Part shown: piece after piece, positions 2,308 to 20,492 of the stretch
How positions within the stretch are numbered: position 1 is the first letter of the stretch
How the letters are laid out: every line of letters starts with the position of its first letter
Assembly: GCA_965223665.1 (NCBI GenBank)
Contig: CBDCXH010000004.1
Coordinates: forward strand, 1-26,341
From: Nitrospinaceae bacterium
Lineage (GTDB): Bacteria > Nitrospinota > Nitrospinia > Nitrospinales > Nitrospinaceae
Direction: 5' to 3'
DNA length: 26,341 bases
The notes under the pieces: model-generated
What the model saw: only the letters and a program-made list of their open reading frames with translations
The model's database searches: none
Told to the model about the DNA's origin: nothing
Translations under genes and position numbers: made by a program

Positions 2308-2495
2308 TGATTAAGTAAATTGAAAAACAAGTGGATTAAGGGAAAGATTTGATTTTATTTTAATATTTCTAATTTGCATAGATAAATAATTAAAATAAGT
2401 TTCCAAACTATGACAAAAGAGAAAAAGTTAGATTTTGATGATCTAAATCAAAAAATATTTATAGCTTGATTTGACGAAAACCTTTGATTCAAATT

Positions 2496-4682
2496 ATGAA
2501 TTTTTTAAAAGAATTATTCAATTTAAGAAAAACTAAACCTAAGCGTAAAAAAGAAGATCAATGGAGAAAAGGAGATTTGATCGGGGATCGTTATGAGGTT
2601 TATGATTTTAAATCTGGAGGAATGGGAATAGTTTACTTTTGCTATGATACCAAGTCTCAGGTTTCTGTTGCTCTTAAAACATTCCAAGACGCTTTGGAAA
2701 AAAACCCTTCCATAATGGGTCGCTTTTGTTCTGAAGCGGAAACCTGGGTGAGAATCGATAAACATCCCTTTGTGGTAAGGGCGGATTATGTGGAAAAAAT
2801 TTATAATCGACTATTTATTATTTTGGAATTAATCGTAGGTCATGAAAATTACGGAACAGATCTATCCGGTTGGATCAAGAAAAGAGGGCTAAGCATTAAT
2901 TTGGCTCTCCAATATGCCATTCAAATTTGCGGTGGCATGCTGCACGCTAAAAGGAAATTTGAAGAGATGGGCAAGGTTTTCGTTCATCGCGACCTCAAAC
3001 CAGGTAATATTTTAATAACCCAGGACAAACAGGCAAAGGTAACAGATTTTGGATTAGTAAAAGCTTTAGAGGATTCTTTTATGGAAAATATAACCTCTGA
3101 CCCAACATTAAAAAGGGGAAAGATTTCTTTTACAAATCTAGGAGAAGTCATGGGAAGCTTTTCTTATATTTCTCCAGAACAATGGTCAAAAGACAAGTTA
3201 GATGAACGCTCTGACATTTATTCGATGGGCTGTGTTCTTTATGAAATGTTTACTGGCCATCCCCCCTTTCATATTTCTAGTGTGGACGAATGGAAAAATT
3301 ACAAGGATGTTTCACCTGAGCCAATTGAAGATATTCCAAAAGAACTGAATGAAATAGTTTTGAAATGTTTGGGGAAAAAAAAGGTTGGTCGTTATCAAGA
3401 TTTTGAAAAATTAATGGAAGATCTTCAGGAAATATATTCTACAAGGAAGGGCGAGAAACTAAAAGTCGATTTTACAGAAACTGAATTAAATGCTGTAGAA
3501 CTTGGAAACAAAGGAGCTTCATTAAATTTCCTTGGATTCCAAAAAGAAGCAATAAAAATTTTTGATGAAGCAATAAATTTAGATCCCAATTTTGCTACGG
3601 CCTACAACAACCGGGGAAATGTTTATTTGGATATAAAAGAGCATCAACATGCCCTTGAGGATTATGATCGAGCCATAGCCCTCGATCCCAATTATGCTAT
3701 GGCCTACAATAATCGGGGAGCTGTTTATCATGATTTAAAAAAGTATCAGCAAGCCCTCAAGGAATTTAATCAAGCCATAGCCTTCGCCCCCAATTATGTT
3801 ATGGCCTACTATAACCGAGGAAATATATATAGGGATTTAAAGCAATATAAACAAGCCCTCGAGGATTATGATCAAGCCATTGCGTTCGATCCCAATGATG
3901 CTGAGGTCTACAATAACCGTGGTCTTGTTTATAGGGATTTAAAGCAATACAAGCAGGCTCTCCAGGATTTTGATCAAGCCATTGTGTTCGATCCCAATGA
4001 TGCTATGGCCTACAATAACCGTGGTCTTGTTTATAGGGATTTGAAGCAATATAAACAAGCCCTCGAGGATTACGATCAAGCCATTGCGTTCGATCCCAAT
4101 GACGCTGAGGCCTACAATAACAGGGGGAATGTTTATGCGGATTTAAAAGAGTATCAACAAGCCCTTGAGAATTTCGATAGAGCCATAACCCTCAATCCCA
4201 ATGACGCTGAGGCCTACAATAACAGGGGGAATGCCTATCTTGATTTAAAAATGTATCAACAAGCCCTGGAAGATTACGATCAGGCCCTATCCCTAGACCC
4301 CGATGATGCATTAGTCTACTATAATCGGGGAAATGTTTATAGGGATTTAAAAAAATATCAACAAGCCCTCAAGGATTATGATCGAGCCATTGCACTTGAT
4401 CCCAGTGTTGCTGAGGCCTACAATAACAGGGGGAATGCCTATCTTGATTTAAAAAAGTATCAACAAGCCCTGGAAGATTACGATCAGGCCATAAAACTGG
4501 ATCCCAATTTTTCTTTGGCTTACAACAACCGGGGAACTGCTTTTTTTTATATAGAAAATTTCAAAGAAGCATTAAATAATTATCAACTGTTCATTAAAAA
4601 AGCAGAAAATGTGCCAGAGTATGAAGGTTGCGTTGTTCAAGTAAAGGCGTTTATTGAAGAATTGAAATCAAAATTAAAATAA
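2496..4682 (+). CDS. Hanks-type Ser/Thr protein kinase with ~11 C-terminal TPR repeats
   Basis: GGMGIVY, VALK, HRDLKPGN, DFG, YISPE and SDIYSMG motifs, then 34-aa AYNNRG...A.EDYD.AI..DP repeats. No TM helix seen. Start ATG 2496 (or TTG 2484). Confidence 0.95.
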   Translation: MNFLKELFNLRKTKPKRKKEDQWRKGDLIGDRYEVYDFKSGGMGIVYFCYDTKSQVSVALKTFQDALEKNPSIMGRFCSEAETWVRIDKHPFVVRADYVEKIYNRLFIILELIVGHENYGTDLSGWIKKRGLSINLALQYAIQICGGMLHAKRKFEEMGKVFVHRDLKPGNILITQDKQAKVTDFGLVKALEDSFMENITSDPTLKRGKISFTNLGEVMGSFSYISPEQWSKDKLDERSDIYSMGCVLYEMFTGHPPFHISSVDEWKNYKDVSPEPIEDIPKELNEIVLKCLGKKKVGRYQDFEKLMEDLQEIYSTRKGEKLKVDFTETELNAVELGNKGASLNFLGFQKEAIKIFDEAINLDPNFATAYNNRGNVYLDIKEHQHALEDYDRAIALDPNYAMAYNNRGAVYHDLKKYQQALKEFNQAIAFAPNYVMAYYNRGNIYRDLKQYKQALEDYDQAIAFDPNDAEVYNNRGLVYRDLKQYKQALQDFDQAIVFDPNDAMAYNNRGLVYRDLKQYKQALEDYDQAIAFDPNDAEAYNNRGNVYADLKEYQQALENFDRAITLNPNDAEAYNNRGNAYLDLKMYQQALEDYDQALSLDPDDALVYYNRGNVYRDLKKYQQALKDYDRAIALDPSVAEAYNNRGNAYLDLKKYQQALEDYDQAIKLDPNFSLAYNNRGTAFFYIENFKEALNNYQLFIKKAENVPEYEGCVVQVKAFIEELKSKLK
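3580..4550 (+). repeat. Tandem 102-bp TPR-coding repeats in the kinase
   Basis: Recurring GATCCCAAT...GCCTACAATAACCG units at 102-nt period, several nearly identical. Confidence 0.9.
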
Positions 4683-4777
4683 TTGCTTGGAGCGCTTGAC
4701 TTCAAAAATAATAATTTTAATAATCAGTTGAATAAAATTATTTTTTTATTTCTTTTTAATCAACTCTATTAATGCAA

Positions 4778-5920
4778 TTATTCATTTCCTAACAGTTTCT
4801 CTAATTTGTCTGCCAACCCATTGCAACATAAAAGCTGATTAATCAAACCCAGGCGGATACAAGCAAGGACAAGTTCAGCTTTTTGGTCCCCCATAGCGAG
4901 AACTATCACACCTTTGGGTTTATTTTTGTTTTTGCTATTCTTGGAATTGTTAACGCAGTGCTTTAAATGATCCATAGTCAGAGTTGTGCATCGCTTTTGA
5001 ATTTGAGTTAAGGCTTTAATTTTTGTTGAATTTTTGGGAATAAGTACACCACCCAAATCTCCTAAAGCTAATTGGTTTAGTTGGGCGTCTTCTTTTATTT
5101 TTTTAGGGATCATTTCTTGATCTCCATAGCGAAACATTATTCCACCTCCCCCGAGGCTGGTTAACAACATATCCAACTGTTCGACTTTTGGTTTAGAAGG
5201 GTTCTTTTTTAATAAAGGACTTCCAAAAACTTTTTGGTAAGTTTCGACTTCAAAAATCATTTTCCGAATTCCCTTGAGTTCAGAAGCCGTTAAATTCATA
5301 GGTGAAATGAAAGCAGGAACCGCTGCTAAAGAAAAGGGTTCAGGTTTAGAGTTGCCATTGACAATTTTGTGAAGGCGGCAAGCTAAATTGGAACTAGAAA
5401 AATAACTGGGGGTGATTCCCAGTGGTTCTCCGGATAACGGGATAAATTCGGTTTTATTTCTTCGGGGTTTATTAATGATATATCCTTTTAAGGCCTTTGT
5501 AAGGCTGTCTAAATGAGTCCCCCAAGTAACCCCACAATGTCTGGAGGAGGAAAATAAATCTTTAACGTAACCCGCACATAAAGTGCCAAAGCGTTCCAAG
5601 CGCCACTTAGAAGAACCATTGGGCAATGTAAATACCCTTAGCCTAAAATTTGGATCTTGTGCCTCTTTGCATAATCGATTTTGTAATTCTTTCCTGGAGA
5701 TCCTATCCTGGACTAATTGCATGATTCCTTTAGGGTCGTCCTTATTTTCAATAAAAGTTTTAAAGGTTTTGATATAGGTGGTTCCATGATCTTTTAAAAT
5801 CCGATTCACTTTTGCTTGATTCAGCTTTAATGTATGGCTGATTTCCTCTTGTGTGTTTCCTTCCGCTGCCAACTTGCAAGCAGCAATTATATCAATTTGA
5901 GATTGGGGGATATTATCCAT
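4778..5920 (-). CDS. SorC/DeoR (LsrR-like) transcriptional regulator: HTH plus sugar-phosphate-binding domain
   Basis: N-terminal TQEEISHTLKLNQAKVNRIL HTH; GVTWGTHL, FIPLSG, DMLLTSLG, ALGDLGG and VLAMGDQKA...GLINQL typical of the sugar-binding domain. RBS AAGGAGG. Confidence 0.85.
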   Translation of the reverse strand: MDNIPQSQIDIIAACKLAAEGNTQEEISHTLKLNQAKVNRILKDHGTTYIKTFKTFIENKDDPKGIMQLVQDRISRKELQNRLCKEAQDPNFRLRVFTLPNGSSKWRLERFGTLCAGYVKDLFSSSRHCGVTWGTHLDSLTKALKGYIINKPRRNKTEFIPLSGEPLGITPSYFSSSNLACRLHKIVNGNSKPEPFSLAAVPAFISPMNLTASELKGIRKMIFEVETYQKVFGSPLLKKNPSKPKVEQLDMLLTSLGGGGIMFRYGDQEMIPKKIKEDAQLNQLALGDLGGVLIPKNSTKIKALTQIQKRCTTLTMDHLKHCVNNSKNSKNKNKPKGVIVLAMGDQKAELVLACIRLGLINQLLCCNGLADKLEKLLGNE

Positions 5921-5985
5921 AAACCCTCCTTAAACGATTTAGCAAAATTTAAAGGCCTTTGCTTGGTCGATAATATTAAAATGTC

Positions 5986-8900
5986 TTAGTATGTCATTCC
6001 CTTTAGAAGTCCATTCGAATCAAAATTAAAATTTTCTTGGACCACTCCATTCCGAATGTGAGCTATTTTGTCTTTGTCCCGTTTAATAACCCAATGTTCT
6101 CCATCGGCACGTTTAACTTCTTGTATGTTACCTTCAGAATCGTTATCAAATGTATCTGCTCTTTGATTACTATCTTCAAGTTTTACTAAGCTGCCATTTT
6201 CATAGGTATACTTTTGTTTAAACTTACCCTTTCGATTATTTATCGACCTCAATTCTCCTTTAGTGCCATAAGTAAATCGAATATCCTTTTCACCTGATCG
6301 GATTTTCTTAACCCTATTGTTTTTGTCATAGTGGTAAGACATTGTGGTAGAGTTTGATGAATCGCCAATGACCTCTTTTATTAATTGACCCTTTTCAAAA
6401 AAACGTTTCAACTCAACTAAACCTTCAGAAACCATTTTGTTGAGTTCCCCACTCTCGTTTTCATATTCAAAAGAACTTCTGATTTGTCCATTTGTCCCAT
6501 TATTACCGGTAAAATTGATTTTGATTAGATTGAAACTTTTGTTAAAAACCAATTCGGTCGTTTTATATTTTGTTTCTGTTTTTTCCATCCATTGATTGGT
6601 TTGAACAACTCCATTTTCAATAAGATTTCCATAAGTTTTTAGAAGTACAACTTTTTCACCATTGCGGATTCCTTTCAACTGACCCAACTCATCAAATATT
6701 AATGAGCGTTTTTTGCCTTCCTCATCAATCACTTCAATTTCTTGTTGGTCTTGCGAAAACTGGAGAGTTGTTTTCTTTCCATAGGAAGTTTGATGGTTTA
6801 TGGTTTTTAACATCCCGGAATCATAATATTCATAGCTGGATTGATTGCCGAAAGAATCAGACTGCTTCAATAATTTCCCCCCGATATCATAATGTTCCTG
6901 GCATTGTCATTTCGCCAAGAGTTTTAGTCGCAACCATGTGAGATCCTTTCTGTTGAATTTCGGTTGTCATCGTACCCCAATGTTTATTGTTTTCCTGGAT
7001 GACACGACCCAAATCATCATATTCCACGGAGGATATCTGTTCCCCATTATGCTGAATGGTAATTAATTGGTGTTTTGAGTTATATGAATATTCAGTGATC
7101 TTCTCTCCATGGGTGATTTTGGCAAGGTCTCCTTGTGTATTGTATTGATAAATAAACAATCCTTTTTCCGTTTCAGCATGCGTCACGCGATTCAAGGCAT
7201 CATAGGAAAAAGTGATTTTATGATTGGGTTTACCCTCAATTAACATTTGAATGCTTGCCAACCGATAGGAATCATCGTATTTATACGTATAGGTTTGAGA
7301 CTCGAATTCTTTTTGGATCAGGTTTCCCTTTGCATTAAACATTAGGACGGTTCCATTCCTATATTCCACTCGATTCTCATTTTTTGAAGTATTAGGTTTA
7401 AAAGAACGAATCCCCTGATTTTTTGGAATTCGGTAACTTATTCCCTCTTCTTTTTGTTCAACGGGAAAAGTTACGTTGTTCAAACCGAAGGGATGAACCA
7501 AGCGATAGGAGTGGTTAGCCAACTTTTCGCCTCCCGCATTATTGAGTAGGGGGGATAAAATTAAATAGGGAAGATCCCATTGCCAAGAAAATCCAAACGG
7601 CCCGGGAGAATTATGAAATGAAGAATAAGATCGCGAAATCAAACCTAACTCTTGGTCATTAAGAAGTTTTGCTCCAAAAGGCCGGGTTTGGGAAGTGGGA
7701 AGCGCCACCACTCTTTTTTTTCTTGCTTTCCCCGTTGGTAAACATTCCGGTTTCCACTTTGGCAGAAAGAGGAACAGCCTGAGTTGCGTTTTTCAAATAT
7801 TTTTTTATTTTTGTAGGATCTTCTTTGTAGAGTTTTACAGTCAGGTCGTTTCCTCCAAAAATGGAAATCCCTTTAGGCCAAGGATCTTTAGCAGTGAAAG
7901 AAGGTGTGCCTGTTTCAGTCTCATAAAAGGTTTCAAAATCCTTAAGCCAATCCAAATTAAGATTCACTTTTCTTAGTTTTAGCCATTTGGCTAGTGCCAC
8001 TAAATTGGCAAGAGATTTTACCTTTCTGAAAACAGGAAATTGTTCTGCATATTTGTCATAGTATTCTGTGAAGTGCCCAGCAAAGTATTCCGCTTTTTTA
8101 TCAATGTGATTTTTTCCCGCTGGGATCAATTTCCCTGTTTCATCGCTCCATCTCATAGTTTGAGTTTTTACGCGAATTTTTGTGTCTGTAAATGCAATGG
8201 AGTTCCCATCTTCTGTGAGTTGTACTACCACTCTGACAGGCTCCAACCAAAACCTTGAAAATAATTTCTTATCATGGTTCCCACCCATTTCGGTATATTC
8301 TAACTTTATTAAGTTGTGATAACCTTCTATGTCAGCGGAGACTGGTTGACGAGTGACATTATCCTCGCCCATGCTCAAAGCCTTCATCAGGCGATCCGAT
8401 TCCAAAAGGAGGTATCCGAAGTGTGTATTTTCCACTCCCCCAAAAAACTTGATCTCCATGCAATTTAAGGGAAGTTCTTTCCTCTGGTTTTTAACTTTCT
8501 TTTTACAATTCTCTGGATCCAAACCTTTGATATCCGCTTTCCCATGAGGGTTTTTGGGATTAGGATCAATGGTTACTCCAGGTTCGTGCAAATAATTACC
8601 AAACACGGTACGAAATGCTGTCGCTAAATGGTCCAAACGAACTGAAGATAAGGATCCTGTTTTAGAATCCGGACCAATGAAAAGAAGCCGCTGGCTATTC
8701 GGATCAAATGTGACGGTTTCAACTTCTCCGAGTTTGCCCAAAACCTCTGCAACCTTGTCTAAATAGACTCCGCCTACGTTGGGGCGTTGGTTTTTAAAAC
8801 TCGATAAATTTTTATAAGCGTAATATCCTCCTTTAAAACCTTTTTCTATTACTTTTCCTGCTTTCGATAGTTGGCCCCAATGGTTAGCAAAGGCAGCTCG

Positions 8901-11243
8901 AACAAAATGAAACTTAGCTGCATAGGGTTTGGTAGCTCTATGAAAATTCAACAAGGTTTTATTAATATGAAATTTTTCCGATTTTAATAAAGCTGAAAAA
9001 ATCTTCTGGCCAGCTCCTTTGTAATCTTTTTTCTAATAATTTGACTACAGCTTGACCGCCATTTAGGCCAATTTTAAAGGCTTCAGAAAGCTTTGAAATT
9101 TTTGAAAAGGTACTTTTGGACCTAACTCCATATTTTTGAAGCCATTTGAATTTTGGAAAGCGAATTGTAGAAAGGTTCCATGCTATGTCTGCAAGAGATT
9201 GGCCGTCATTAAAGTAGGTTCCAGGCAACCTTCCTCCTAATAAATCAAGCCCCGTGGCTTTCCAGCCTTTTCCTGACAAGATGGCTTTTTCTGATTGCTC
9301 CGAATACCATTGCTTTAAATCAGAAAAATCTCCTCCCCATCCAAATCTTAATAGATCATAGCCTGTTGCCTTCAATCCATTTCCCGATTCAATCGCTTGC
9401 TGTGACCGTTCTTTTAACCAATCATTTATCACAGAAGAATCCCCGCCTATTTGAAAATTTAACTCTTCAAATAAGAGCGCTCCCAATACATTTCCTGATT
9501 GGATGGCTTGTTCGGATTTCATCGAATACCATTCGCTAGCCGTGGTGGTGTTGAGCAAATCCCTGAGTCCGGAAAAAGCGGACTCAAAAAAGTAAGATGT
9601 GTATTGTCTGAACAAACCGGGTTTGTCAATAAAGTTCACAGGGGCATTGCCCACATAGTTGTAGCGGTTTTGTTTTCCTTCATCCATGAATTGATGCAGT
9701 ACCGGGTCTTTGGATAAAAACCGGCCTATATATGGATCATAATACCTGGCCCGCAAATATACTTTGCCGCTATCATCTTGTTCTTCTCCAGTGAATCCAA
9801 ACCGCACTCTAGGAATGCGTTTCACCGGAACACCGAAAGGCGTGTACTCGCCAACACCAATTAATTTTCCGGATGCATCGATAGCGCCACGGATGGATCC
9901 TAAATGATCTTCAAAATAGAACACAGGATTTTGCTGTTGATTAATGTGACCCAGGGGTTGCCCTTCGGACCAAATATATTTTTGAGTTTTTCTTCCCTTG
10001 GCAACGAATACATTGGGAATCTCTTTCTATGAAATGAAGGTACTGGTGAGATCCATTTTTTCCGTTAGATTTTACCCGCCAACCCAAAGCATTGTATTGA
10101 TATTGGGTGTTATCATCCTCGTTGCAATTCATCTTTAACATTGAAGGTAAAAGACGAACCTAAAACATGGGTTACATTGCCCGCCGGGTCATGTTTCACC
10201 GGTTGGTCATTAATAGTAATGAAGTTGATCCGTATCATTGTATGAAGCTTTTAAGTGGCCAGATGGACTGGTGGATTGGATCCGGTTGCCAAAAATATCA
10301 TACTTGTATTGATACAACCTGCCATCGGAATACCGGGCATTCAGTAATTGACCATACTTGTCGTACTCAAACTGAATTTTGAAGTTGCCGTCAGGGCGTC
10401 ATCTCCTGAATGGTTTTTAGTTGACCCGAATCCTCATATTCGTATTTAAATTCGAATAGGACCCTGTTGTTGGGAGCCACATGTTGAATCAATAGGGGTC
10501 GACCTTCTTCATTATAGGTAAACTGACTGAACGCTCCGTTAGGATACACCCGTTGCTTGAACCGGCGGTTGTAATCATTGCTGATTTTTAAATTCACCAA
10601 CAGGCGTTTGAATAGAAACCGGATTACCAAATAAATCGCGGGTGTATTTTAAAAAATGGTTTCCTTGCTGCCATTGGATGGAAGAGATTTTTCCATTTTC
10701 TGTATGAGCATAATGGATGACATCTCCACCCGGGTAGGTAATAGCTTTTTAAATTACCGAAGTCATCTTTTTGTAATTGAGTGGTTCCTGTTTTATCTGT
10801 AAATTTTTCAGGAAAACCCCAATCGTCAAATTCATAACTTTCTTCAAAATCACCATAGGAAACGGTGGAAGGAAAGGCCATTATCTTTATACAGGTAGGA
10901 TAATCCGCCTTTTACCAGGACCAAGGATGGATTGTAGACGGGATTGATCGTCATATTTAAAACGAATACGATCGCGTGGTGAGCCTGGGACTATTTTTTC
11001 GCTTTTCTGGTTAGCTTTTGAAGTTTTTTTGGATGCTTTTCTTTAAGTCCTAGATGTCTTGTTTTGCATTGATGTTTCTTTTAAGGTTTTTTTTGATCCT
11101 TGATAGTAGATGCTTCTTTTCCACAAGCCACGAGTAAAAATAAAAGAGAAATAAATACGATGCAGTATGATTTTGTCTTAGAAGAAAATTTTGAGCCGAA
11201 CATAAAAAAGGTCTCATTGGAATCACAATTATTTTCTGTCCAT
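5986..11243 (-). CDS. Giant Rhs/YD-repeat protein (~1,750 aa if repaired), split by multiple frameshifts; lipoprotein signal, Rhs core, DUF1598-like domain, second YD block
   Basis: Track ORFs 10624-10881, 10391-10630, 9941-10141, 8962-9924, 7659-8954, 6887-7711 and 5986-6870 join by single-base shifts (T6 at 9027-9032, T8 at 7714-7721, extra base near 6900). Core motifs DHLGSIR, YTPFG, FGFTGEEQD, YLRARYYDPYIGRFLSKDP and NRYNYVGNAPVNFIDKPGL. RBS GGAGGA before ATG 11243; alternative start ATG 11203. Confidence 0.8.
7750..8790 (-). other. DUF1598-like domain inside the Rhs reading frame
   Basis: VGGVYLD, PGVTIDP, FFGGVENTHFGYLLLESDRLMKALSMG, SRFWLEP, FAGHFTEYYD and LANLVALAKW resemble DUF1598 proteins (recalled, not searched). 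Confidence 0.6.
11120..11203 (-). other. Lipoprotein signal peptide of the Rhs protein
   Basis: MFGSKFSSKTKSYCIVFISLLFLLVA|CG: basic n-region, hydrophobic h-region and lipobox LVAC (Cys codon 11123-11125). Too short for the ORF track because a frameshift follows in an A run. Confidence 0.7.
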
Positions 11244-11295
11244 CTCTGCTTCCTCCTTTAACAATTTCGAAAATAAATTCATGCGAATGCGTTAT

Positions 11296-12026
11296 TTAAA
11301 GTTTTGTATCTTTGGAAAATAAAACCACCGCAATATTGTCTTCACCCCCATGATCATTAGCAGCATCAACTAAACGCATTGCAGCTTGTTTCAGATCATG
11401 GCTATGATTCCCGGATTATTTTTAGAATTTCAGAATCCTCCACCATGTCCGTTAACCCATCGCTGCATAGCAAAAAAATGTCCCCGGTTTGAATTCCTAA
11501 TCTTTGGACTTCCGGTGTGATAATGATCCTACCCAAACATTGGGTAATGATGTTTTTCTCTTCGTGAGTCCTGGCTTCTTCCTTGGTAATGCGACCGGCT
11601 TTTACTAAATTGTCGACTAAAGAATGATCTTCGGTCAGTTGTTTAATTTGATTTTTGCGGATTCGGTAGGCTCGGCTGTCGCCACAATGAGCAAAAATAA
11701 TTTGGTTTTCCTGTAGTAAAGTTAGAACTATGGTAGTACCCATTCCATACAAAGCCTTTCTTGCTCCGCTTTCTTAAGAATTATGGAGTTTGCGTAATCC
11801 ATAGCTTCTTTAACTGCAGACTCAGGATTCAAACTTTTCTCTAAATTCAGATCCTTTATAAATGTGTGTATGCTCGCAGTTGCAAGTTGACTCGCCACTT
11901 CACCTCCCGCAAGCCCCCCTACACCGTCTGCTACTATAAATAGGCCAAGAGTCTCATCGACCAAAAACAATCTTCATTAATGGTTCGTTCTTTGCCTTTA
12001 TCTTTATGTGTGCCTATTCGAATCAT
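11296..12026 (-). CDS. PP2C/PPM-family Ser/Thr phosphatase (Stp1/PrpC-like), three frameshifts
   Basis: Reassembled: MIRIGTHKDKGKERTINED / LFIVADGVGGLAGGEVAS / GMGTT...AHCGDSRAY...LTEDHS...LLCSDGL / LVDAANDHGGEDNIAVVL. All PPM motifs present; shifts near 11970, 11755 and 11410. Confidence 0.9.
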
Positions 12027-12085
12027 TGGGTTTCCTTGTGAAGAGATTTAATTGGTTTCATCCTTCATCTCACTTAACTTATAAG

Positions 12086-12101
12086 AGCAATTACCGTGCC
12101 A
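12086..12101 (-). promoter_or_regulatory. Sigma-54 (-24/-12) promoter for the PP2C-Rhs-SorC cluster
   Basis: Minus strand TGGCACGGTAATTGCT, an exact match to TGGCACG-N4-TTGCW, 60 bp upstream of the PP2C ATG. Confidence 0.9.
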
Positions 12102-12196
12102 GTAGGCAGTAACTTTTTTAAGTCCTTAGTTTTATGAGGGTTTTGTATTTTTAATTTATATCCTGGAAATTTGCTTCGCTTAAAATTAAAAAAAAC

Positions 12197-12211
12197 GTCT
12201 AGTAACTGGAC
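12197..12211. promoter_or_regulatory. Candidate enhancer (UAS) for the sigma-54 activator, copy 1
   Basis: GTCTAG-TAA-CTGGAC, ~96 bp upstream of the -24 element; a further GGACA-T-TGTCC palindrome at 12229-12239. Confidence 0.7.
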
Positions 12212-12608
12212 ATAGAGAATTATTTATTGGACATTGTCCTAATGAACATTGATTCTTCAGGAATGCTTCCGGGACAGTCGATGAAAATTTTTGCAGGACT
12301 TCAGATGTATCGTTCTAGTTCTGTTTTGATTCCCTTGAATTATTTTTTTTTATTCTCAGTTTTAGTAGAAGGTAGGGGATAATTGGGAATGGTAGGATTA
12401 TTAGCATCTGTGTTTTAGATAAATTCCAGCAATCTTTGCTTAAATTCAGCTTTAAATAATTTTTTTTCTTTAAGTTGGTTTACCTCGTCAGCACTAATTA
12501 GAAAATCAATATAAATGAAACTCAATTTATCTTGATTTTTTTGATCTCTTAAGCATTCAAGAAAAATGTTAGTTTTCTAAACACCGCACCCTTTTGTATT
12601 TTAGTTTA

Positions 12609-14483
12609 TTAGATTTTTTTTATGTCGCTTCCCAAAATGTCATCGGGAATTCCGTATTTTTTCATTTTGTCCAAAAAGGTTTGGCGACTTTTAATTCCTA
12701 AAATTTCACGTGCTTCATTTTTTGTTTTACTGCCTCTCAAAGCTTTCTCAATGCTTTCTTTTTCAGTTGGGATCTGAGATTTTAATGATTTATCCTTCCC
12801 ATCATTGGCATTAGGGTTTTTATCTTTTTTTACTTTTTTTAGAAATACCACTGATAAGTCTCGAAGCTGAATGATACCTCGACATTTACGGAATGCCTCC
12901 GAAACCACCGTCTCCAGTTCGCGAATATTACCCGGCCATGAATATTCCAGAAATAGCTTGATTACCTCGTTTGAAATTCCCCGGTTTTTAACAAACGTGT
13001 CTTCTAAAGCAACTTTATCTAAAAAGAAATGTGCTAATAAAGGAATATCTTTATTTCTTTCCCGGAGGGGGGGAATGACTAGAGGCTCTCCCAGACGATA
13101 ACTTAAGTCCTCTCTGAATTCTCCTGTTTCGATCTTTTTTTCAATGTCCTGGTTGGTCGCAGCTATCACATTCGTATTGAGGGTTCGGCCTTCTTTCTCG
13201 CCCATTCGAATCACAACTCGGAATTGAATCAATTGCAGTAATTTTAATTGAATTTTAATATCCAAATCTCCGATCTCATCAAAAAAAACACATCCATTTT
13301 TAGCCGCGTATTGTACTCGTCCATCTCTATCTCGATCTGCCATATTATGGGCACCTTTCCTCTCACCAAACAAGGTAGACTCTGCCGTGGTTTCGGGGAT
13401 TTGAGTACAAAAAACCACATTTTTCTCATTAAAATCTTTAAAGGAATGAGGGGTTTTATTATTTTTTTGTTCCCAAACTTGATAAAGATAATAGGCTATA
13501 AAGCTTTTTCCCACTCCAGTTTCTCCGCGCAGAAAAATATTTTTCGTTGTTTGTGCTTTAGTCTGCAACTGTTCATTAAATTTTGAATCGATAATCAGGT
13601 AGGGCCATTCGATGAAATCTGAACAACCCACAAGTGATTCGTCTTTATTGTCCCTATCAAGAAAATCTTCAATTTGTTTTCCTAATAATTTTAAAAAAAT
13701 AAATTCGTTTTCTTTTTCTTCAAACTTTTTCTGGGATTTCTTTTTTACAACCAAATAGTTTACAATTTTATCAGTTTTGTTTAGAGCCAGATAAAGTGTC
13801 CCATCCTCAATATGGTGATCATTTGCTAAAAGATTTTCTTTGATCTGGGTGCTAAAAGGAAGGTATCCAGAAGAATCAATTATTAAAGATTTTCTTTGAG
13901 GTAAACTTAAATCACCTTTGAAAATTTCAATTAGGATGCTTAATTTTTCGTTTAAGAGATTCTTGATTTTCAAGAGTATTTCTTGCTGGTTTAATCCATT
14001 CAAGTAAATCTCTATTTCTTCATATAAAATTCTCAATTCCTTAGGTAACTTTTTAATCAAAGAATTAGAAGAAGTTTTAACCTTGATTGGCCCAGTAAGT
14101 GAATTGTCTACATCTTTAAGTGGATATTTTTGATCTGTAAGTTCCGAAACATAATTTTTGCTGCTTGATAATTTGTCAAATAATGTTTCTATGCTTATTA
14201 TTTTTAAATCCAAATTCCCTATTTTAAATTTATCCTCCACCTCAAGAGTTTTTTGAAATATCTTTTGTTTCTTATATTCTATTCCATTAGTACTGCTGAG
14301 ATCCCTTAATATGTAGTCACCACTTGATTGTTGAAGGAATACTGCATGAAATCGAGATACTTTTTGGTCCAACAAACAAATATCATTGTATTTTGAGTTA
14401 CGGCCTAACCGAATTAATGGCTTGTCCAGTGGGAACCAACGATCTATCATTTTCTCTTTTTCAACCACCAAGACAATGTTCAT
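12609..14483 (-). CDS. FHA-domain sigma-54-dependent transcriptional activator (FHA, degenerate GAF-like region, AAA+, Fis-type HTH)
   Basis: FHA motifs LGRN, VSRFHA and DLSSTNG; Walker A GETGVGKS; ESTLFG..KGAHNMA; Walker B FFDEIGD; QLKLL, IAATN, FREDLSYRL, WPGNIREL; C-terminal HTH. RBS GGAGGA. Confidence 0.92.
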   Translation of the reverse strand: MNIVLVVEKEKMIDRWFPLDKPLIRLGRNSKYNDICLLDQKVSRFHAVFLQQSSGDYILRDLSSTNGIEYKKQKIFQKTLEVEDKFKIGNLDLKIISIETLFDKLSSSKNYVSELTDQKYPLKDVDNSLTGPIKVKTSSNSLIKKLPKELRILYEEIEIYLNGLNQQEILLKIKNLLNEKLSILIEIFKGDLSLPQRKSLIIDSSGYLPFSTQIKENLLANDHHIEDGTLYLALNKTDKIVNYLVVKKKSQKKFEEKENEFIFLKLLGKQIEDFLDRDNKDESLVGCSDFIEWPYLIIDSKFNEQLQTKAQTTKNIFLRGETGVGKSFIAYYLYQVWEQKNNKTPHSFKDFNEKNVVFCTQIPETTAESTLFGERKGAHNMADRDRDGRVQYAAKNGCVFFDEIGDLDIKIQLKLLQLIQFRVVIRMGEKEGRTLNTNVIAATNQDIEKKIETGEFREDLSYRLGEPLVIPPLRERNKDIPLLAHFFLDKVALEDTFVKNRGISNEVIKLFLEYSWPGNIRELETVVSEAFRKCRGIIQLRDLSVVFLKKVKKDKNPNANDGKDKSLKSQIPTEKESIEKALRGSKTKNEAREILGIKSRQTFLDKMKKYGIPDDILGSDIKKI

Positions 14484-14529
14484 GAAATCCTCCTTTTCAT
14501 ACTTTAGTGATTTTAAAAAGTATGTTTTT

Positions 14530-14563
14530 TATTGAGTCCTAAACCATAAGAAGGGACTCAATA
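14530..14563. promoter_or_regulatory. 10-bp inverted repeat upstream of the activator gene (terminator or operator)
   Basis: TATTGAGTCC-N14-GGACTCAATA flanked by T-rich sequence. Confidence 0.4.
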
Positions 14564-14728
14564 GATTCTTTTTTTAATACTTTTTAACATTTTTTTAACT
14601 GAAATCTCCATCCTTTGTAATAGAAACAAGGAGTAAAATTAGTATTTAAACTTAATAAAGCGTGCCATTCCAGTTGACTTTTAGAAACAGAGAAATACTT
14701 GGTCTAGAAGCTGCGAATCATAGTTTGC

Positions 14729-15065
14729 TTATTTCCACGGAATATTTATAACATCAACAGAGACACTACGCATTATTACTGAAATTTGTAAGGCATCAAT
14801 GTCTTCTTCAAATAACGAAGAAAACATTGGGGCTAGATTATGGTACATATCTATTACAAAGTTGTTATTGATTAGGCAATTGCAAATCCTAAAATGGTTT
14901 TCTGCCCTATTTAAATATTTTTTCAGAAATAATTGTTTAAATATAGCCTGTAGGCAATAGAATTCCTCTCATCACTTCGGTTTTTCTAAAAAACTTTTTG
15001 GTGACGTTATAACCTTGCTTCTGTTTGAGTCTTATTTGACTACCTTTTCCAATGTTTGTTCCCAT
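14729..15065 (-). pseudogene. Possible small gene, broken by a frameshift
   Basis: RBS-like AGGAAGGTGA then ATG 15065 gives 42 aa (stop 14937-14939); a shifted frame stays open to TAA at 14729-14731. No recognisable motif. Confidence 0.3.
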
Positions 15066-15085
15066 GCGTATCACCTTCCTTCTTT

Positions 15086-15892
15086 TTATAATGCATGCCA
15101 ATTAAAATCAGCCGCTCCGGTTAGATAGTATTCAGTCCACCAATCCTCAATAGATTTATTTTTTACGCTATTGGATAGTTCAAAAACTTCCACTTCTACT
15201 CCTTCTAATAAATCTTTTATTTGGACAAAATAATTTTTTTCATCCAATAAGGTATGAAACTTCTTAAAATTTTTGCGATACATAGATAAAACGTTAGAGT
15301 TCTCTTTTTTATCAGAGAAAACAACCATACTGGCTTGATTCCCCTTCAAGTAGGAACCGTCAATCACTTTCCTTAGAGTGACTAGTAAATTTGTGGTATC
15401 TGATTTTTGAGCTTTCGAACTATTTAAATTGGACATCACCTGGTTAATAGGTTGATCCCAATTTTTTTCTAACCCTTCAGCGTAGACAATGGACCCTTGA
15501 GTGAGGTTGCTTTTTTTGATGGGCTTACACGCGGACCAAACCCTTAAAGTTTCTTTACTCTGATCATCGGGTCCCATCCAAAAAATACTTAAACGATCAC
15601 CTCCTTGCAAGGTTTCTTTCAATGATAGAGTTCGAGATTTTGCGCTTTCCAACGCATGTTTTTTCATCAAATCGGTATTGTCATAAATAATGACAACCGA
15701 TTTTGAGGGTACTTTTTCGGTACTGCAATGGGTCGTCGGATCCACCATCGAAGAGGATGATACCTGAAAACTGATCAACCCTAAAAGAACAATCATCACC
15801 ATGATGAGAATCAATGATTTTGTATAATTATTCGAAAAAGCCGTTTTAAATTTAAACCAGTCAATTGATTTCATAAAGGGCCTCCATTTCAT
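15086..15892 (-). CDS. Membrane-anchored vWA-like (MIDAS-variant) protein
   Basis: N-terminal hydrophobic helix; VVIIYDNTD strand plus DxTD; DTTNLLVTL; MVVFSDKKENS. Overlaps the stop of the upstream gene. Confidence 0.55.
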   Translation of the reverse strand: MKWRPFMKSIDWFKFKTAFSNNYTKSLILIMVMIVLLGLISFQVSSSSMVDPTTHCSTEKVPSKSVVIIYDNTDLMKKHALESAKSRTLSLKETLQGGDRLSIFWMGPDDQSKETLRVWSACKPIKKSNLTQGSIVYAEGLEKNWDQPINQVMSNLNSSKAQKSDTTNLLVTLRKVIDGSYLKGNQASMVVFSDKKENSNVLSMYRKNFKKFHTLLDEKNYFVQIKDLLEGVEVEVFELSNSVKNKSIEDWWTEYYLTGAADFNWHAL

Positions 15893-17324
15893 TTCTCACC
15901 TGGCGGTGACCGTTATTTATGTGAAATTCATCCGTAAGTACATTGGTCTCTAATGCCAAAATCTTCTGGAAGGTTTGATTCTTCAATTTATTTAAACCTC
16001 GGAGAGCATTTTTGAATAATCGTTCATTTTTTTTACAGGATTTTAATGTCGAGTATGAAAGCATTGATAAATACGCCTTTGCTTGGTCAACATTCAAATG
16101 GTCATTTTCAACAGGATGAATTTGAGGAATGGCGATTTCCTGTTTGGGATATACTTCACCCAATTTATTCTTTACTCTTAATAATTCAGCTTGCAGAGAA
16201 TCCTGAATCGCGTTTTGTTCATTTTGAAATTCTTTATCCAGTTTGAGAATTTCCATGGAAGCTTCATACATCACAAAGATGGCTTCATCAATTTTAGTTT
16301 TCATTACCCTGAGATCTTTTTCCGATTTGTTGTATGCATTTTTATGAGCTGCTTTATAACCTTTTAACAGATGGTCCAATTCATTTTCCACTCTTAGCAA
16401 ATCCTTGCGTGCAATCATAACTTGTTTATAATCTCTAAATTTAGGACGAAATTTTTGTCCTGCGTACATCGCAAGAGCCGAAAAAAATAACCCGATCACC
16501 GCCATTGCATAATTTTCCAAGTTGTCAAACCTCCAATAAAAATCGAGGAACCAATTTAAAGCGGTTGAAGAGGGATTAGGATCTTGTACCACTAGTGCTT
16601 GACGATACCAGGAAACAGCTGAGAAGTAGGAAAACAGTACAAGTAAGTAAGCAAAGTGTAATCCATTCATAATTTGCTTATTAAACAATTTATTTTCTTT
16701 TAATAAAGCGGTGAAATAACCCCAGGAAAAAGAGCCGAAAACACCGATGGTAGCCACAATCAATGAAATTGTTCCTGCTTCTAAAAGTCCTCGGGTTAGA
16801 TAAGGACTGATAAAGATTCCAGAAAACACGGCTTCCATTAAAAGGAGAACGAAAAGTAAGGTGATTTCCCAAAGAATTTCCCCATTTTGGATGATGGTTG
16901 CTACATTTGCCTCTACCAAATTGAGTTGATGTTTTGCATTATCGCGTTCATGTTTCTTTTGTTGAATTTTGTGTTCCCAATCATTTTTCAGATTAATAAG
17001 TTGCATTTCATATTCACTAATTGGATTTGAACAAATACCCCAGTTAGTAAAAAACTGATAGGCTTTCATTTGGATCTCAAACTCTTTAACCTTAGTTTCG
17101 TAATAAGTTGCAACCTTTTCCTTAAATTGTTGGAAACAATTTTTTGCGGACTCAAACACCTCGGCTTCAACAATTTGTTCAGGATTGTTATTATGTCCTT
17201 TAACAATGGTTTCGTTGATAAATTGCTTGATTGATTGGTATGCCTCCGAAATTGCCGGCTTGATTCCCGGTTTCATTTTGAGTTCCATGATGTTGTCCCC
17301 TTTCAAATAAATAGAATGATTCAT
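15861..17324 (-). CDS. Coiled-coil membrane protein with four central TM helices
   Basis: Helical coiled-coil N- and C-termini around four hydrophobic segments. RBS before both ATG 17324 and ATG 17288. Confidence 0.75.
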   Translation of the reverse strand: MNHSIYLKGDNIMELKMKPGIKPAISEAYQSIKQFINETIVKGHNNNPEQIVEAEVFESAKNCFQQFKEKVATYYETKVKEFEIQMKAYQFFTNWGICSNPISEYEMQLINLKNDWEHKIQQKKHERDNAKHQLNLVEANVATIIQNGEILWEITLLFVLLLMEAVFSGIFISPYLTRGLLEAGTISLIVATIGVFGSFSWGYFTALLKENKLFNKQIMNGLHFAYLLVLFSYFSAVSWYRQALVVQDPNPSSTALNWFLDFYWRFDNLENYAMAVIGLFFSALAMYAGQKFRPKFRDYKQVMIARKDLLRVENELDHLLKGYKAAHKNAYNKSEKDLRVMKTKIDEAIFVMYEASMEILKLDKEFQNEQNAIQDSLQAELLRVKNKLGEVYPKQEIAIPQIHPVENDHLNVDQAKAYLSMLSYSTLKSCKKNERLFKNALRGLNKLKNQTFQKILALETNVLTDEFHINNGHRQVRNEMEALYEIN

Positions 17325-17347
17325 TTATCCTTTCCTCTAACCTTTAG

Positions 17348-17363
17348 AGCAAAAGGTTTGCCA
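17348..17363 (-). promoter_or_regulatory. Sigma-54 (-24/-12) promoter for the 4-TM/vWA-like pair
   Basis: Minus strand TGGCAAACCTTTTGCT with correct GG-N10-GC spacing, 24 bp upstream of ATG 17324. Confidence 0.75.
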
Positions 17364-17470
17364 ATCTCCTAAGAACTCAAAATTAATAAATTTCTCCTTT
17401 TTTTTTATATAGTTATCGGTAATCCTTCAACCAGGCCTTTCTTTGCAACATTAAAAAAACAAAATCCGGC

Positions 17471-17485
17471 GTCCAGAAACTGGAC
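17471..17485. promoter_or_regulatory. Candidate enhancer (UAS), copy 2
   Basis: Perfect palindrome GTCCAG-AAA-CTGGAC ~108 bp upstream of the -24 element; 16/18 identical to 12196-12213. Confidence 0.7.
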
Positions 17486-17826
17486 ATCGATAACCCCAGT
17501 AAACTTCAAAACCTATTCTTCTCAACGATAAGTAATTAAACTTTTTCGATCCTTATAACATAGTGAAACTAATTATGTGAATGGAAAGGAGTTACCTTAG
17601 TCTCGGACTGGTAAATATATTCGTTTTTGAGAACAGACTTGATTCTTAAAAAAAAGAATGGAGTTTAAGGATCGATCCAAAAGGATAAGGGGTCGGGGAG
17701 ATTTTTCCTCCGAGAGAATTAGATTTTTAATTTTGTATTCAGCGTCAAGATAGCACCATTTTCCAAAAGAAAGTTGGGGGGGTTGACCGTCTGAGTTTTG
17801 GGTATTAAGCTTCAAAAGGGAAAACA

Positions 17827-18055: not shown

Positions 18056-20323
18056 TTACTCAGAGGATTGCATTTGCTGATTTATGGAATCGATATTTTT
18101 TTGCACTATCTCCGCCTGATGATCTAAGCTTAACTTATTAAAAATGGCTAACGCCTTCTCAAAATACGCAATGGCTTGGTCGAAATCTCCTTTGTATTTC
18201 CAAGTTAATCCCAGGTTGATCCAATTAAGGGCTACATCGGGATGGTCTGTACCAAAAGTTTTTATATTGCTATGAAGGGCCTTCTCAAAATACGCAATGG
18301 CCTTTTCGTAATCTCCTTTGTTTATCCAAGCCTCTCCAAGGTTGTTCCAATTAAGGGCTACATTAGGATGCTCTTCACCGAAAGTCTTTATATTGCTGGC
18401 CAACGCTTTCTCGAAATACTCAATGGCTATGTCGTACTCGCCCTTGCAACTCCAAGAGACTCCCAAGTTGATCCAATTAAGGGCGACGTTGGGATGGTCT
18501 GCACCAAAAGTATTTATATTGCTGTGAAGAGATTTCTCGTGGTATTCAATGGCCTTGTCAAAATCTCCTTTGTTATCCCAAGCTGCTCCCAGGTTATTCC
18601 AAATTCGGGCGATATTGGGATGATCTTCACCGAAGGTTTTTAGATCACTGTGAAGCGCTTTCTTGAAGTATTCAATGGCTTGGTCGTAATCTCCTTTGTG
18701 TCTCCAAGCCGTTCCCAGGTTGTTCCAATTAATGGCGACATCGGGATGGTCTGCACCAAAAGTATTTATATTACTATGAAGGGCTTTCTCAAAATAAGCA
18801 ATTGCCTTTTCGTAATCTCCTTTTTTATTCCAAACCAAACCCAGGTTGTTCCAATTAATGGCGACATTAGGATGGCCTTCACCAAAAGTTTTTATATTGC
18901 TATGAAGGGCTTTCTCAAAATTCGCAATGGCCTTTTCGTAATCTCCTTTTTGTCTCCAAGCTTCTCCCAAGTTGTTCCATTTAAGAGCGACGTCGGGATG
19001 GTCTGCACCAAAAGTTTTTATATTACTGTGAAGAGATTTCTCGTAGTATTTAATGGCTTGGTCATAATCTCCTTTGATATCCCAAATTACTCCTAGGTTG
19101 TTCCAACTGGTGGCGACCTTAGGGTGATCTTCACCTAAGGTTTTCAGATCACTGTGAAGCGCTTTCTCGAAGTATTCAATGGCTTGGTTGGAATCTCCTT
19201 TGTCAGCCCAAGCCAATCCCAGGTTGTTCCAACGGTCGGCGATATTGGGGTGATCTTCACCAAAGGTTTTTAGATCACTGTGAAGCGCTTTCTTTAAGTA
19301 TTCAATGGCCTGGTCGTAATTTCCTTTATGTCTCCAAGCCAATCCCAGGTTGTTCCAATTAAGGGCAACATCGGGATGATCTGCACCAAAAGTTTTTATA
19401 TTGCTATGAAGGGCTTTCTCAAAATAAGCAATGGCTTGTTCGTAATCTCCTTTGTGTCTCCAAGTTTCTCCCAAGTTGTCCCAACGGATGGCAACGTTGG
19501 GGTGCTCTTCGTCAAAGTTTTTCAGATCACTGTGAAGCGCTTTCTTAAAGTATTCAATGGCCTGGTCGTAATCTCCTTTGTGTTTCCAAGCTAATCCCAG
19601 GTTGTTCCAATAGGTGGCGAAGTTAGGATGCCCTTCATCAATTGTTTGGAGATCGCTGGACAAGGCTTTTTCATAACAATTTATGGCATGATCGTATTTG
19701 CCTAAAGTAGCATAAATAAATCCAGTATCATTTAAATAAGTTCCAATCTCCGGTGCCAGTTGCGCCGCCCGTTCATATTGCTTCAAGGCCTCACGGTAAT
19801 TCACGGCATCCTCGGCAATTTTTCCTCTTCTATAATGAACCCGAGCCTGTTCCTCAATCAAAGACAACCGCTCTTTGTTTTCTTCCAATTCTTTAAATAA
19901 TTGATCCGCTTCCGACAAATCCCCACTGGCTAAAGCTTCTTCGGCTTGTTGCATTTGAAAAGGAGAAAACTGGTCTTTAAATTTCTGTAGATCCGAATTG
20001 GTGGCTTGTAGTTGTTCCAAGTGATCTTTATAGGATTGTTCCAGGTTGGCCTGTTTGCCTTCAATGGCACTTAACTCCAGTTCTAATTCCTGAATCCGAT
20101 CCTGATCTTTCCCACGCTCTTCAGCCAACTCGGCGCGGATCTCGGCTTCCCGTTTTTGCAAAAACGCATGGTGTTCTTCCAGGGTGATACCAATGACAAA
20201 TTTGTCACCTTCAACCTTATCGCCTATTACTTTGTCACCCGCCACATTATCGCCCATGACGGTGCCCTGGGTTTTGGGGTTGGCATTTTGAGGTTCTTGA
20301 TCTTTAGGGTTAGGTTCGGGCAT
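18056..20323 (-). CDS. TPR protein with ~12 tandem 42-aa repeats (kinesin-light-chain-like), N-terminal GDxV repeat and coiled coil
   Basis: FG.DHP.VA..WNNLG.AW..KGDY..AI.YFEKAL repeats at 126-nt period. Start ATG 20323 (track uses 20335). No NTPase motif seen. Confidence 0.92.
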   Translation of the reverse strand: MPEPNPKDQEPQNANPKTQGTVMGDNVAGDKVIGDKVEGDKFVIGITLEEHHAFLQKREAEIRAELAEERGKDQDRIQELELELSAIEGKQANLEQSYKDHLEQLQATNSDLQKFKDQFSPFQMQQAEEALASGDLSEADQLFKELEENKERLSLIEEQARVHYRRGKIAEDAVNYREALKQYERAAQLAPEIGTYLNDTGFIYATLGKYDHAINCYEKALSSDLQTIDEGHPNFATYWNNLGLAWKHKGDYDQAIEYFKKALHSDLKNFDEEHPNVAIRWDNLGETWRHKGDYEQAIAYFEKALHSNIKTFGADHPDVALNWNNLGLAWRHKGNYDQAIEYLKKALHSDLKTFGEDHPNIADRWNNLGLAWADKGDSNQAIEYFEKALHSDLKTLGEDHPKVATSWNNLGVIWDIKGDYDQAIKYYEKSLHSNIKTFGADHPDVALKWNNLGEAWRQKGDYEKAIANFEKALHSNIKTFGEGHPNVAINWNNLGLVWNKKGDYEKAIAYFEKALHSNINTFGADHPDVAINWNNLGTAWRHKGDYDQAIEYFKKALHSDLKTFGEDHPNIARIWNNLGAAWDNKGDFDKAIEYHEKSLHSNINTFGADHPNVALNWINLGVSWSCKGEYDIAIEYFEKALASNIKTFGEEHPNVALNWNNLGEAWINKGDYEKAIAYFEKALHSNIKTFGTDHPDVALNWINLGLTWKYKGDFDQAIAYFEKALAIFNKLSLDHQAEIVQKNIDSINQQMQSSE
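18150..19700 (-). repeat. Tandem 126-bp repeats coding the 42-aa TPR units
   Basis: Recurring GGATGGTCTGCACCAAAAG / GTTGTTCCAATTAA / CGTAATCTCCTTT blocks. Confidence 0.9.
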
Positions 20324-20492
20324 AGAATTTACCACTGAGAATTAACAGGTTTATAAGCCCATATAATATAGAACGGAAATTAACCCAAATCCTACTCCTT
20401 TCGGTTTGCGGATGCAAGCCCAAGCCGGGGATGAAAAAAAGGCAGGGTAGGTAGGTTCAATAAATAAGGGAAGAAAGGAAAATCTTTATAAA

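Follow-up and report, generated by a model that had tools for sequence, protein, structure and literature searches.

The 26,341-base window examined here, meaning the whole stretch of DNA that we analysed, is one entire contig (C5) of the six-contig, 4.35-Mb genome of a Nitrospinaceae bacterium, in which the chromosome is a single 4.24-Mb contig (C1). C5 encodes a Hanks-type Ser/Thr kinase with TPR repeats, a PP2C phosphatase, and an activator that joins an FHA domain to a sigma-54-type AAA+ domain, and it carries two -24/-12 promoters (P1 and P2), each with a palindrome upstream (UAS1 and UAS2). We propose, at about even odds (roughly 0.5), that these parts make up a locally wired phospho-threonine-to-sigma-54 switch, most likely one that was horizontally acquired. 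Because the palindrome is shared by both promoters and unique in the genome, and because the kinase, PP2C, and FHA domain are nearly private to the contig, the internal evidence still argues that the locus is, or was, wired as drawn in an earlier note on this DNA, which was made from the letters alone.

On the minus strand, the elements follow one another in the order P2, the gene for a protein with four hydrophobic segments (the 4TM protein), the gene for its membrane partner, the activator gene, UAS1, P1, the PP2C gene, a giant Rhs/YD gene, and a SorC-like gene, with the kinase gene convergent at the far end (Table 1). The activator gene is thus situated between P1 and P2, both of which have the common palindrome. 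Both promoters named in the earlier note were recovered, P1 without a mismatch and P2 with one. P1 is the sole perfect site in the window and one of seven perfect TGGCAC-N5-TTGCW sites in the 4.35 Mb, and both promoters are correctly oriented, 25-60 nt ahead of a start codon with a ribosome-binding site. When at most two mismatches are allowed, promoter-like matches occur in the window at chance level (16 found, 13.9 expected), so the argument depends on P1 being perfect, on where the sites are placed, and on the palindrome being unique across the genome.

UAS1 and UAS2 have the common consensus TGTCCAGTT[A/T]CT[A/G]GACG, and a T-rich tract follows the palindrome at both. Genome-wide, the only sites that match this consensus exactly are UAS1 and UAS2, with two further sites at two mismatches; when GTCCAG-N3-CTGGAC was allowed up to one mismatch, four sites were found in 4.35 Mb, two of them being UAS1 and UAS2. 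The best 17-mer common to the two A+T-rich upstream regions (15 of 17 positions) was matched by 38 of 2000 shuffles. The shared upstream palindrome seen earlier has therefore held, with centres at the distances given in Table 1 and exact sites that are unique in the genome. These palindromes are presumed to be candidate enhancer sites for binding by the activator.

The second line of evidence concerns the phospho-threonine parts. The kinase matched Pfam Pkinase (E 1.2e-34, 120 bits) as well as TPR families, and the catalytic motifs (VALK62, HRD168, DFG188, and SPE230) are all kept, so that a TPR kinase, as first described, is borne out; its glycine loop, GGMGIV, deviates from G.G..G. No hydrophobic or transmembrane segment was found in the kinase, and it is predicted to be cytoplasmic. 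Two pieces of the PP2C gene matched NF033484 Stp1_PP2C (E 1.7e-43 over profile positions 83-202, and E 5.7e-13 over positions 21-85), and the catalytic motifs NED, ADGVGG, GDSR, SDG, and EDN are all still readable. The gene is the first after P1 and its assignment to PP2C is likely, but there is no open PP2C gene in the sequence as assembled. The whole genome has two Pkinase matches, of which the C5 kinase is the only full-length one and the other is partial, one PP2C_2 match, which is the C5 phosphatase, and two FHA matches, one of them in the C5 activator. As a result, C5 nearly monopolises these parts, and this near-privacy is the best support for calling the circuit self-contained, as the earlier note proposed. 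The rpoN gene, which is intact, is encoded on the chromosome.

The FHA domain of the activator matched PF00498 (E 1.9e-11, 44.7 bits against a cut-off of 20.7) and keeps the phosphothreonine-binding pattern as LGRN, SRFH, and STNG within residues 24-70; the phosphothreonine-binding residues of FHA domains are Arg, Ser, His, and Asn. The AAA+ domain matched Sigma54_activat (PF00158, E 1e-38, 133 bits against a cut-off of 20.2) together with AAA_lid_14. Walker A (GETGVGK), Walker B (VFFDEI), and the FREDLSYRL/arginine-finger region are kept, and alignments of the protein to NifA and ZraR extend over the AAA+ domain and the C-terminal helix-turn-helix (HTH), ending at residues 601-607.

Table 1. 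Positions of the main features of contig C5 (window coordinates; aa, amino acids).
Feature	Position	Strand	Description
Hanks-type Ser/Thr kinase	2484..4682	+	Intact; 732 aa; kinase domain at residues ~44-305, then ~10 TPR repeats
SorC/DeoR-like regulator	4778..5920	-	380 aa; 66 nt downstream of the giant gene, same strand
Giant secreted Rhs/YD protein gene	5986..11203	-	13 stop-free pieces as assembled
PP2C, first gene after P1	11296..12026	-	4 frames as assembled
P1, sigma-54-type -24/-12 promoter, TGGCACGGTAATTGC	12087..12101	-	0 mismatches; ~60 nt upstream of the PP2C start
UAS1, palindrome, TGTCCAGTTACTAGACG	12196..12212	-	Centre 104 nt upstream of P1
FHA-AAA+ activator	12609..14483	-	Intact; 624 aa; FHA, ~200-aa linker, sigma-54-type AAA+, C-terminal HTH
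Single-pass membrane partner	15086..15892	-	268 aa; one transmembrane segment; overlaps the 4TM gene by 32 nt
4TM protein, first gene after P2	15861..17324	-	487 aa; four hydrophobic segments, coiled-coil flanks; unannotated family
P2, -24/-12 promoter, TGGCAAACCTTTTGC	17349..17363	-	1 mismatch, GG and GC retained; 25 nt upstream of the first ATG
UAS2, palindrome, TGTCCAGTTTCTGGACG	17470..17486	-	Centre 116 nt upstream of P2

In the switch that we propose, the TPR array of the soluble kinase would bind a protein or peptide cue, and the kinase would then autophosphorylate on threonine. The FHA domain of the activator would dock on phosphothreonine, either of the kinase or of the activator's own linker, and thereby free the AAA+ domain to oligomerise. 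The C-terminal HTH would bind the palindromes upstream of P1 and P2, and ATP hydrolysis by the activator would open the sigma-54 holoenzyme complexes at both promoters. Output from P1 would comprise PP2C and the giant YD/Rhs/DUF1598-like protein, and perhaps the SorC-like gene product, and output from P2 would comprise the 4TM protein and its single-pass partner. Since nothing resembling a terminator was seen ahead of the activator gene, transcription from P2 may continue into that gene. PP2C, as the first protein made from P1, would strip the phosphothreonine and reset the switch. In character, the two outputs resemble effectors of the envelope or conflict type more than housekeeping proteins. 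To our knowledge, neither the kinase that feeds FHA-bearing sigma-54 activators nor their direct targets are well defined. With the kinase, phosphatase, activator, enhancer, and both promoters on one 15-kb piece, and with little competing Ser/Thr signalling, C5 could serve as a compact test bed, the value of which is limited by its being a singleton locus and by the doubt over the sequence of its main operon.

That doubt arises from frame breaks. As assembled, PP2C lies in four frames and the giant gene, from 11257 to 5986, is split into 13 stop-free pieces, and no giant open reading frame (ORF) exists in the assembled sequence under table 11. Within the giant gene, 11 successive shifts run in the same direction, with one extra base each. 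We compared the window with short-read contigs (depth 2-5 only) from a public run, X1, of what is probably the source sample. These contigs cover eight of the 15 junctions, seven in the giant gene (6900, 7714, 10023, 10119, 10222, 10585, and 10743) and one of the three in PP2C (11754, where one base was added). At all eight, X1 and the window differ by exactly one base, within the frame overlap and in the direction that restores the frame. Because of this agreement, the 15 breaks are probably consensus errors from two co-assembled alleles, and real decay is a doubtful cause; PP2C and the giant gene are consequently probably open in the cell. Insertions where two alleles differ would be a typical product of a collapsed long-read consensus. 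An alternative genetic code for the broken region was also considered and rejected, since the breaks are frame shifts and not one kind of stop codon. The cluster of frame shifts at 5986-12050 nonetheless calls for caution in annotating C5.

Several observations weigh against the switch or favour another explanation. The 15 frame changes of the P1 operon fall within ~6 kb, none was seen in the 7.5 kb made up by the other five genes (kinase, SorC-like, activator, partner, and 4TM), and the chromosome is otherwise well formed (88% in long open frames). This can be read as a sign of a local artefact, but also in favour of real decay, since random error would not be expected. Moreover, seven of the 15 junctions are without X1 contig cover at this low depth (the stretches 8851-9304, 10894-11574, and 11802-12028 have none), and the contigs that fix five of the eight covered junctions belong to a second allele that is only ~92-93% identical to the window. 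The P1 operon could then consist of true pseudogenes decaying in the assembled strain, with the circuit a relic and intact copies kept by a sister strain. We regard this as quite unlikely, given that ~12 of the breaks are one-base insertions, several of them outside homopolymers, which is unusual for natural decay, and that all of the breaks are frame switches, with no in-frame nonsense codon seen in the broken region. In addition, every catalytic motif of PP2C is kept, the substitutions relative to the ~92% allele are mostly of the synonymous type (19 of the 24 listed are at third codon positions), and one X1 contig agrees with the window throughout 291 nt except at the single base in question. 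The chief evidence against the simple switch model is the L1 loop of the activator, which is also its most interesting detail. The FHA domain, AAA+ domain, and HTH alignment uphold the FHA-sigma-54 activator of the earlier note, but the loop that contacts sigma-54 reads GAHNMA where NifA and ZraR have GAFTGA. It was the sole such variant among the 15 matches inspected, out of 20 Sigma54_activat matches in the genome, and the other loops located follow G[AS]FT[GS]A. Loss of the F and T of GAFTGA is expected to impair sigma-54 remodelling, as in PspF and NifA. The Sigma54_activat score is also low, at 136 bits in the genome-wide comparison against 230-250 for the canonical activators of this genome, and residues 1-300 found no relative among 5.8 billion proteins; a metagenome scan with the activator returned only a generic activator fragment (40% identity, residues 397-612). 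The protein may be a degenerate enhancer-binding protein (EBP) that is unable to remodel sigma-54 and that acts from the palindromes as a repressor, an anti-activator, or a sigma-70-type regulator (TyrR-, NtrX-, or VpsR-like), with P1 and P2 silent or driven by another activator. Vibrio cholerae VpsR, which is reported to be without the residues needed for sigma-54 and to work with another holoenzyme, provides a precedent (PMC6158489), and a T-to-P change in the L1 loop is reported to inactivate NifA (PMC4641369). We consider such a degenerate activator unlikely, because the gene is flanked by two -24/-12 promoters with the same palindrome at enhancer distance, because sigma-54 promoters require an activator and this palindrome is found nowhere else in the genome, and because Walker A, Walker B, and the arginine-finger region are retained. 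A further point against it is that DVUA0100 of Desulfovibrio vulgaris, with the loop GVATGV, is still predicted to run sigma-54 promoters (PMC4641369). DVUA0100 and VpsR resemble the C5 activator in retaining an AAA+ activator scaffold with an altered sigma-54 contact loop. They differ in that DVUA0100, as reported there, retains the threonine and has a role at sigma-54 promoters that is predicted only, whereas GAHNMA is without both F and T, and in that VpsR is described as acting without sigma-54. If the proposed switch is true, an activator without the Phe and Thr thought essential implies another way to engage sigma-54. A natural GAHNMA activator beside sigma-54 promoters could in any case be of interest to specialists.

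The remaining objections come from the setting of the genes. The earlier note had held that its idea would fall if relatives showed no conserved neighbourhood, and this was the outcome: no orthologous locus was found in the genome or metagenome contigs searched, the 4TM protein was found in none of the 40 nearest relatives, and a -24/-12 site was upstream in none of eight homologous loci. Of nine loci that hold a giant-gene homologue, not one also encodes the activator, PP2C, the 4TM protein, its partner, or the SorC-like protein, and only one encodes a kinase; the four loci with a 4TM homologue lack the activator, PP2C, and SorC-like genes. Because no conserved neighbourhood was found in relatives, the locus appears to be a one-off assembly and not a family of systems. 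In C5 itself, the kinase gene forms its own transcription unit, convergent and on the opposite strand, ~8 kb away from the activator gene, with no direct link seen between the two, and the island is a patchwork, some of it having paralogues at C1:2669869-2672289 and in TPR gene families. All of this would fit chance neighbours in an accessory island, with the kinase and PP2C serving another target and the FHA domain reading another phosphoprotein. We find this improbable, since the genome offers hardly any other Hanks kinase, PP2C, or FHA partner, and since PP2C is the first gene behind a promoter that has the presumed site of the activator. The locally wired switch remains our preferred reading of the locus.

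The larger of the predicted P1 products is a giant protein that begins with a lipoprotein signal (LVAC lipobox) and continues with ~370 aa of YD repeats, an Rhs-associated core, a variable stretch of ~215 aa, a DUF1598-like module of ~340 aa, and a further ~570 aa of YD repeats. It matched Pfam RHS_repeat and TIGR03696 Rhs_assc_core (70.9 bits) and has a hydrophobic signal segment. The core lies about one third of the way along the protein, with ~1200 aa after it, and ends in NAPVNFIDKPGL; at this point the window has DKPGL against the canonical DPxGL, which is canonical in one of the five aligned homologues that reach the motif, and the sequences diverge directly after the core. By eye, the variable stretch (8962-9640, minus strand) seems to contain three copies of a ~37-aa unit with the pattern W-x-S-E-x-S-x-x-A-I-x-S-G-x-G. 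The pieces are collinear, across six frame switches, with an intact 1,642-aa ORF in a Deltaproteobacteria metagenome-assembled genome (L005:7805-12733), and also with long ORFs at L008:7133-12988 (1,951 aa), L009:7778-11629, and L010:8399-11986. The giant Rhs lipoprotein proposed at first is therefore well supported as a single gene, by the intact collinear homologues, but exists only in pieces in the sequence as assembled.

The domain order is kept in relatives, and a match to the Rhs core lies just upstream of a DUF1598-like match in five of the nine related loci. These loci are labelled Deltaproteobacteria, Acidobacteriota, 'proteobacterium', Verrucomicrobiota, cyanobacteria, Bacteroidales, and Halanaerobiaceae, and the neighbours of the homologues include vWA, tubulin-like, CHAT-TPR/NACHT, AAA_35, and TrwC relaxase genes. 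We term the module DUF1598-like because PF07643 scored below its gathering threshold in the window (15.5 bits against a cut-off of 25), as it did in L005 (12.5 bits). The outright DUF1598 assignment of the earlier note was accordingly too strong for the window itself, but distant TPR-fused relatives are annotated with PF07643, and one relative, P0006, scored 25.0. A usable model of the core of the module was obtained (pLDDT 66, pTM 0.70), and it gave no fold match, the best Foldseek hit against the PDB having an E of 0.14 and the best hit of a wide VIA-align search a Z of 2.6. No mention of DUF1598 was found in the literature searched. Judged by these comparisons, the architecture of YD repeats, Rhs core, variable stretch, DUF1598-like module, and YD repeats appears to be widespread across several phyla, undescribed, and located near conflict-system genes, and it too could be of interest to specialists.

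Downstream of the giant gene, the SorC-like protein matched Sugar-bind (PF04198) at 29.3 bits against a cut-off of 27 and over 77 of the 257 profile positions, with an NCBIfam DeoR match at E 0.0078. The SorC designation that it had been given is thus above the cut-off but marginal and limited to part of the profile. It is uncertain whether this gene is part of the P1 operon. A sigma-70-like site lies ahead of it at 5997-5970, at chance level, as is the case for sigma-70-like and terminator-like sites in the window generally. A chromosomal paralogue at C1:2671172-2672302 is 81% identical to the SorC-like gene.

The P2 products were less easily placed. The four hydrophobic segments that had been seen in the 4TM protein were confirmed. 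Its family includes 51 distant relatives, and none of the 20 that were scanned reached a Pfam gathering cut-off; a 25-row alignment of the family was too variable for use, and neither the 4TM protein nor P0013, its best distant relative, gave a result in the related-loci search. A family member was present in five of 119 other genomes of the phylum. In all four related loci, which are from other Nitrospinota genomes (L021:8313-11665, L024:164-3721, L022:9010-12487, and L023:5781-7936), a homologue of the 268-aa partner follows the 4TM gene, and in two of the four a MotA/ExbB-like gene comes next. Other neighbours at 4TM loci are CHAT-TPR, trypsin, ARPP-1, type I restriction, TraG, and resolvase genes.

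For the 268-aa partner, the vWA domain first assigned to it was not corroborated. None of five family members had a Pfam match at E values up to 5, the family profile gave nothing meaningful against the PDB, and the AF2 model (pLDDT 41.6) was unusable. A vWA-like fold, which has a DxSxS MIDAS motif, is possible, because the relatives show DTSQS or DTTDP where the window has DNTDL. The Protein Atlas gave a vWA lead for the partner at rank 26 with a score of 0.88, which we treat as a lead only, and the look-alikes it listed for both P2 proteins were unnamed clusters. Elsewhere, the P1 and P2 modules accompany CHAT, STAND, vWA, tubulin-like, or restriction systems, and these conflict and defence genes beside the homologues of both modules link both outputs with conflict/defence islands in other genomes. 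From this association we infer that the outputs may act in conflict. A more specific, tentative, and on balance unlikely proposal is that C5 holds a transcription-level trigger, in which a private kinase, PP2C, and FHA-activator turn on two conflict-type effector modules at once by means of the GAHNMA loop.

We also compared the locus with known systems. FHA-bearing enhancer-binding proteins were reportedly described in Myxococcus xanthus by Jelsbak, Givskov and Kaiser in PNAS in 2005 (102:3010). What the C5 activator has in common with them is that FHA forms the N-terminal input module of a sigma-54 AAA+ activator and that the organism makes use of Hanks kinases. It differs in having no detectable orthologue and no GAFTGA, and in being encoded together with a kinase, PP2C, promoters, and enhancer of its own on a single accessory contig. 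A second comparison is the threonine-phosphorylation pathway of type VI secretion (the T6SS), in which the PpkA kinase, the PppA PP2C, and Fha1 act post-translationally on the secretion machine, and Rhs proteins are T6SS cargo. In both cases a Hanks kinase, a PP2C, and an FHA reader are linked with an Rhs-family protein. In C5, however, FHA is joined to a transcription activator within one protein, and a Sec/lipoprotein signal is present on the Rhs protein. The absence of T6SS genes from the window that was remarked on earlier extends to the whole genome as far as TssC/VipB (PF05943) is concerned, which had no match in a genome that is 98.6% complete.

Rhs/YD polymorphic toxins have an Rhs core with a DPxGL cleavage site (P-x4-DPxGL), followed by a variable C-terminal toxin. 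The giant protein is similar in its RHS repeats, its Rhs-associated core, and the divergence directly after the core. It differs from these toxins in that the core is internal and is followed by ~215 variable aa, a DUF1598-like module, and ~570 aa of YD repeats, all in one ORF in relatives, and no link to PAAR or VgrG was seen for the giant protein. TerY-P triads, as reported, combine in one operon a vWA protein, a PP2C, and a kinase whose C-terminus is a zinc ribbon or OB fold (PMC11090510), and sets of kinase, PP2C, and vWA genes are also reported from conflict/defence islands (PMC7159879), in the main text of which 'sigma-54' does not occur. C5 shares with them a kinase and a PP2C in an accessory, defence-like context, but departs from the TerY-P definition in the TPR C-terminus of its kinase, its three transcription units, its unconfirmed vWA, and its added sigma-54 activator. 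The earlier note had not recognised the combination as a described system. The logic of an FHA-activator is already known from Myxococcus (2005), and a non-exhaustive literature search turned up no account of an Rhs-type gene under the control of an FHA activator that has a kinase and PP2C of its own. We therefore view the locus as a variation on a known signalling logic with an unusual cargo and an unusual L1 loop, in a single genome.

The contig as a whole is probably an accessory piece that was horizontally acquired. Its G+C content is 36.5%, compared with 38.2% for the chromosome, and bases 2400-17500 matched only DNA scraps of 35-55 nt in four close genomes, one of them of the same genus. 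Plasmid or phage origin was set aside, as the ends of C5 have no terminal overlap and no replication or structural genes were recognised on it in Pfam, NCBIfam, and PHROGs scans; we use the term accessory contig for the same reasons. C5 has chromosomal paralogues only in parts. Bases 1-1274 and the SorC-like gene (4803-5939) resemble C1:2669869-2672289 with 76-80% DNA identity, the SorC-like gene being inverted, and a 272-aa ORF and the kinase gene are inserted between these two parts. The match of the first ORF (49-627) is limited to the N-terminal part of a chromosomal 418-aa DUF6745 protein, and a primase/DUF3987 element lies on the chromosome 4-8 kb beyond the paralogous region. The chromosomal paralogy of the activator is limited to its AAA+ domain, and PP2C, the Rhs pieces, the 4TM protein, and the 268-aa partner have no chromosomal paralogue.

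Beyond the circuit genes, a 759-aa TPR protein (18056-20335, minus strand) is encoded directly upstream of P2, and its paralogues occupy at least eight loci on the chromosome, with amino-acid identities of 45-70%; we judged its family to be a lineage-specific expansion outside the circuit. PADLOC gave only generic kinase, RtcR-type AAA, and TPR matches in the window, and PHROGs had no match for the circuit genes. Two other ORFs have a phage or defence flavour. One (22273-22998, minus strand) matched phrog_1305, 'DNA binding protein', at E 4.5e-12, with a weak match to PD-T7-4, and the other (23811-24263, minus strand) matched phrog_5483 and, weakly, Csm6/Cas13b-type HEPN regions. The Rfam scan detected nothing but one tRNA, a tRNA-Ala (TGC) at 23513-23587 on the plus strand, which is a possible attachment landmark of the island.

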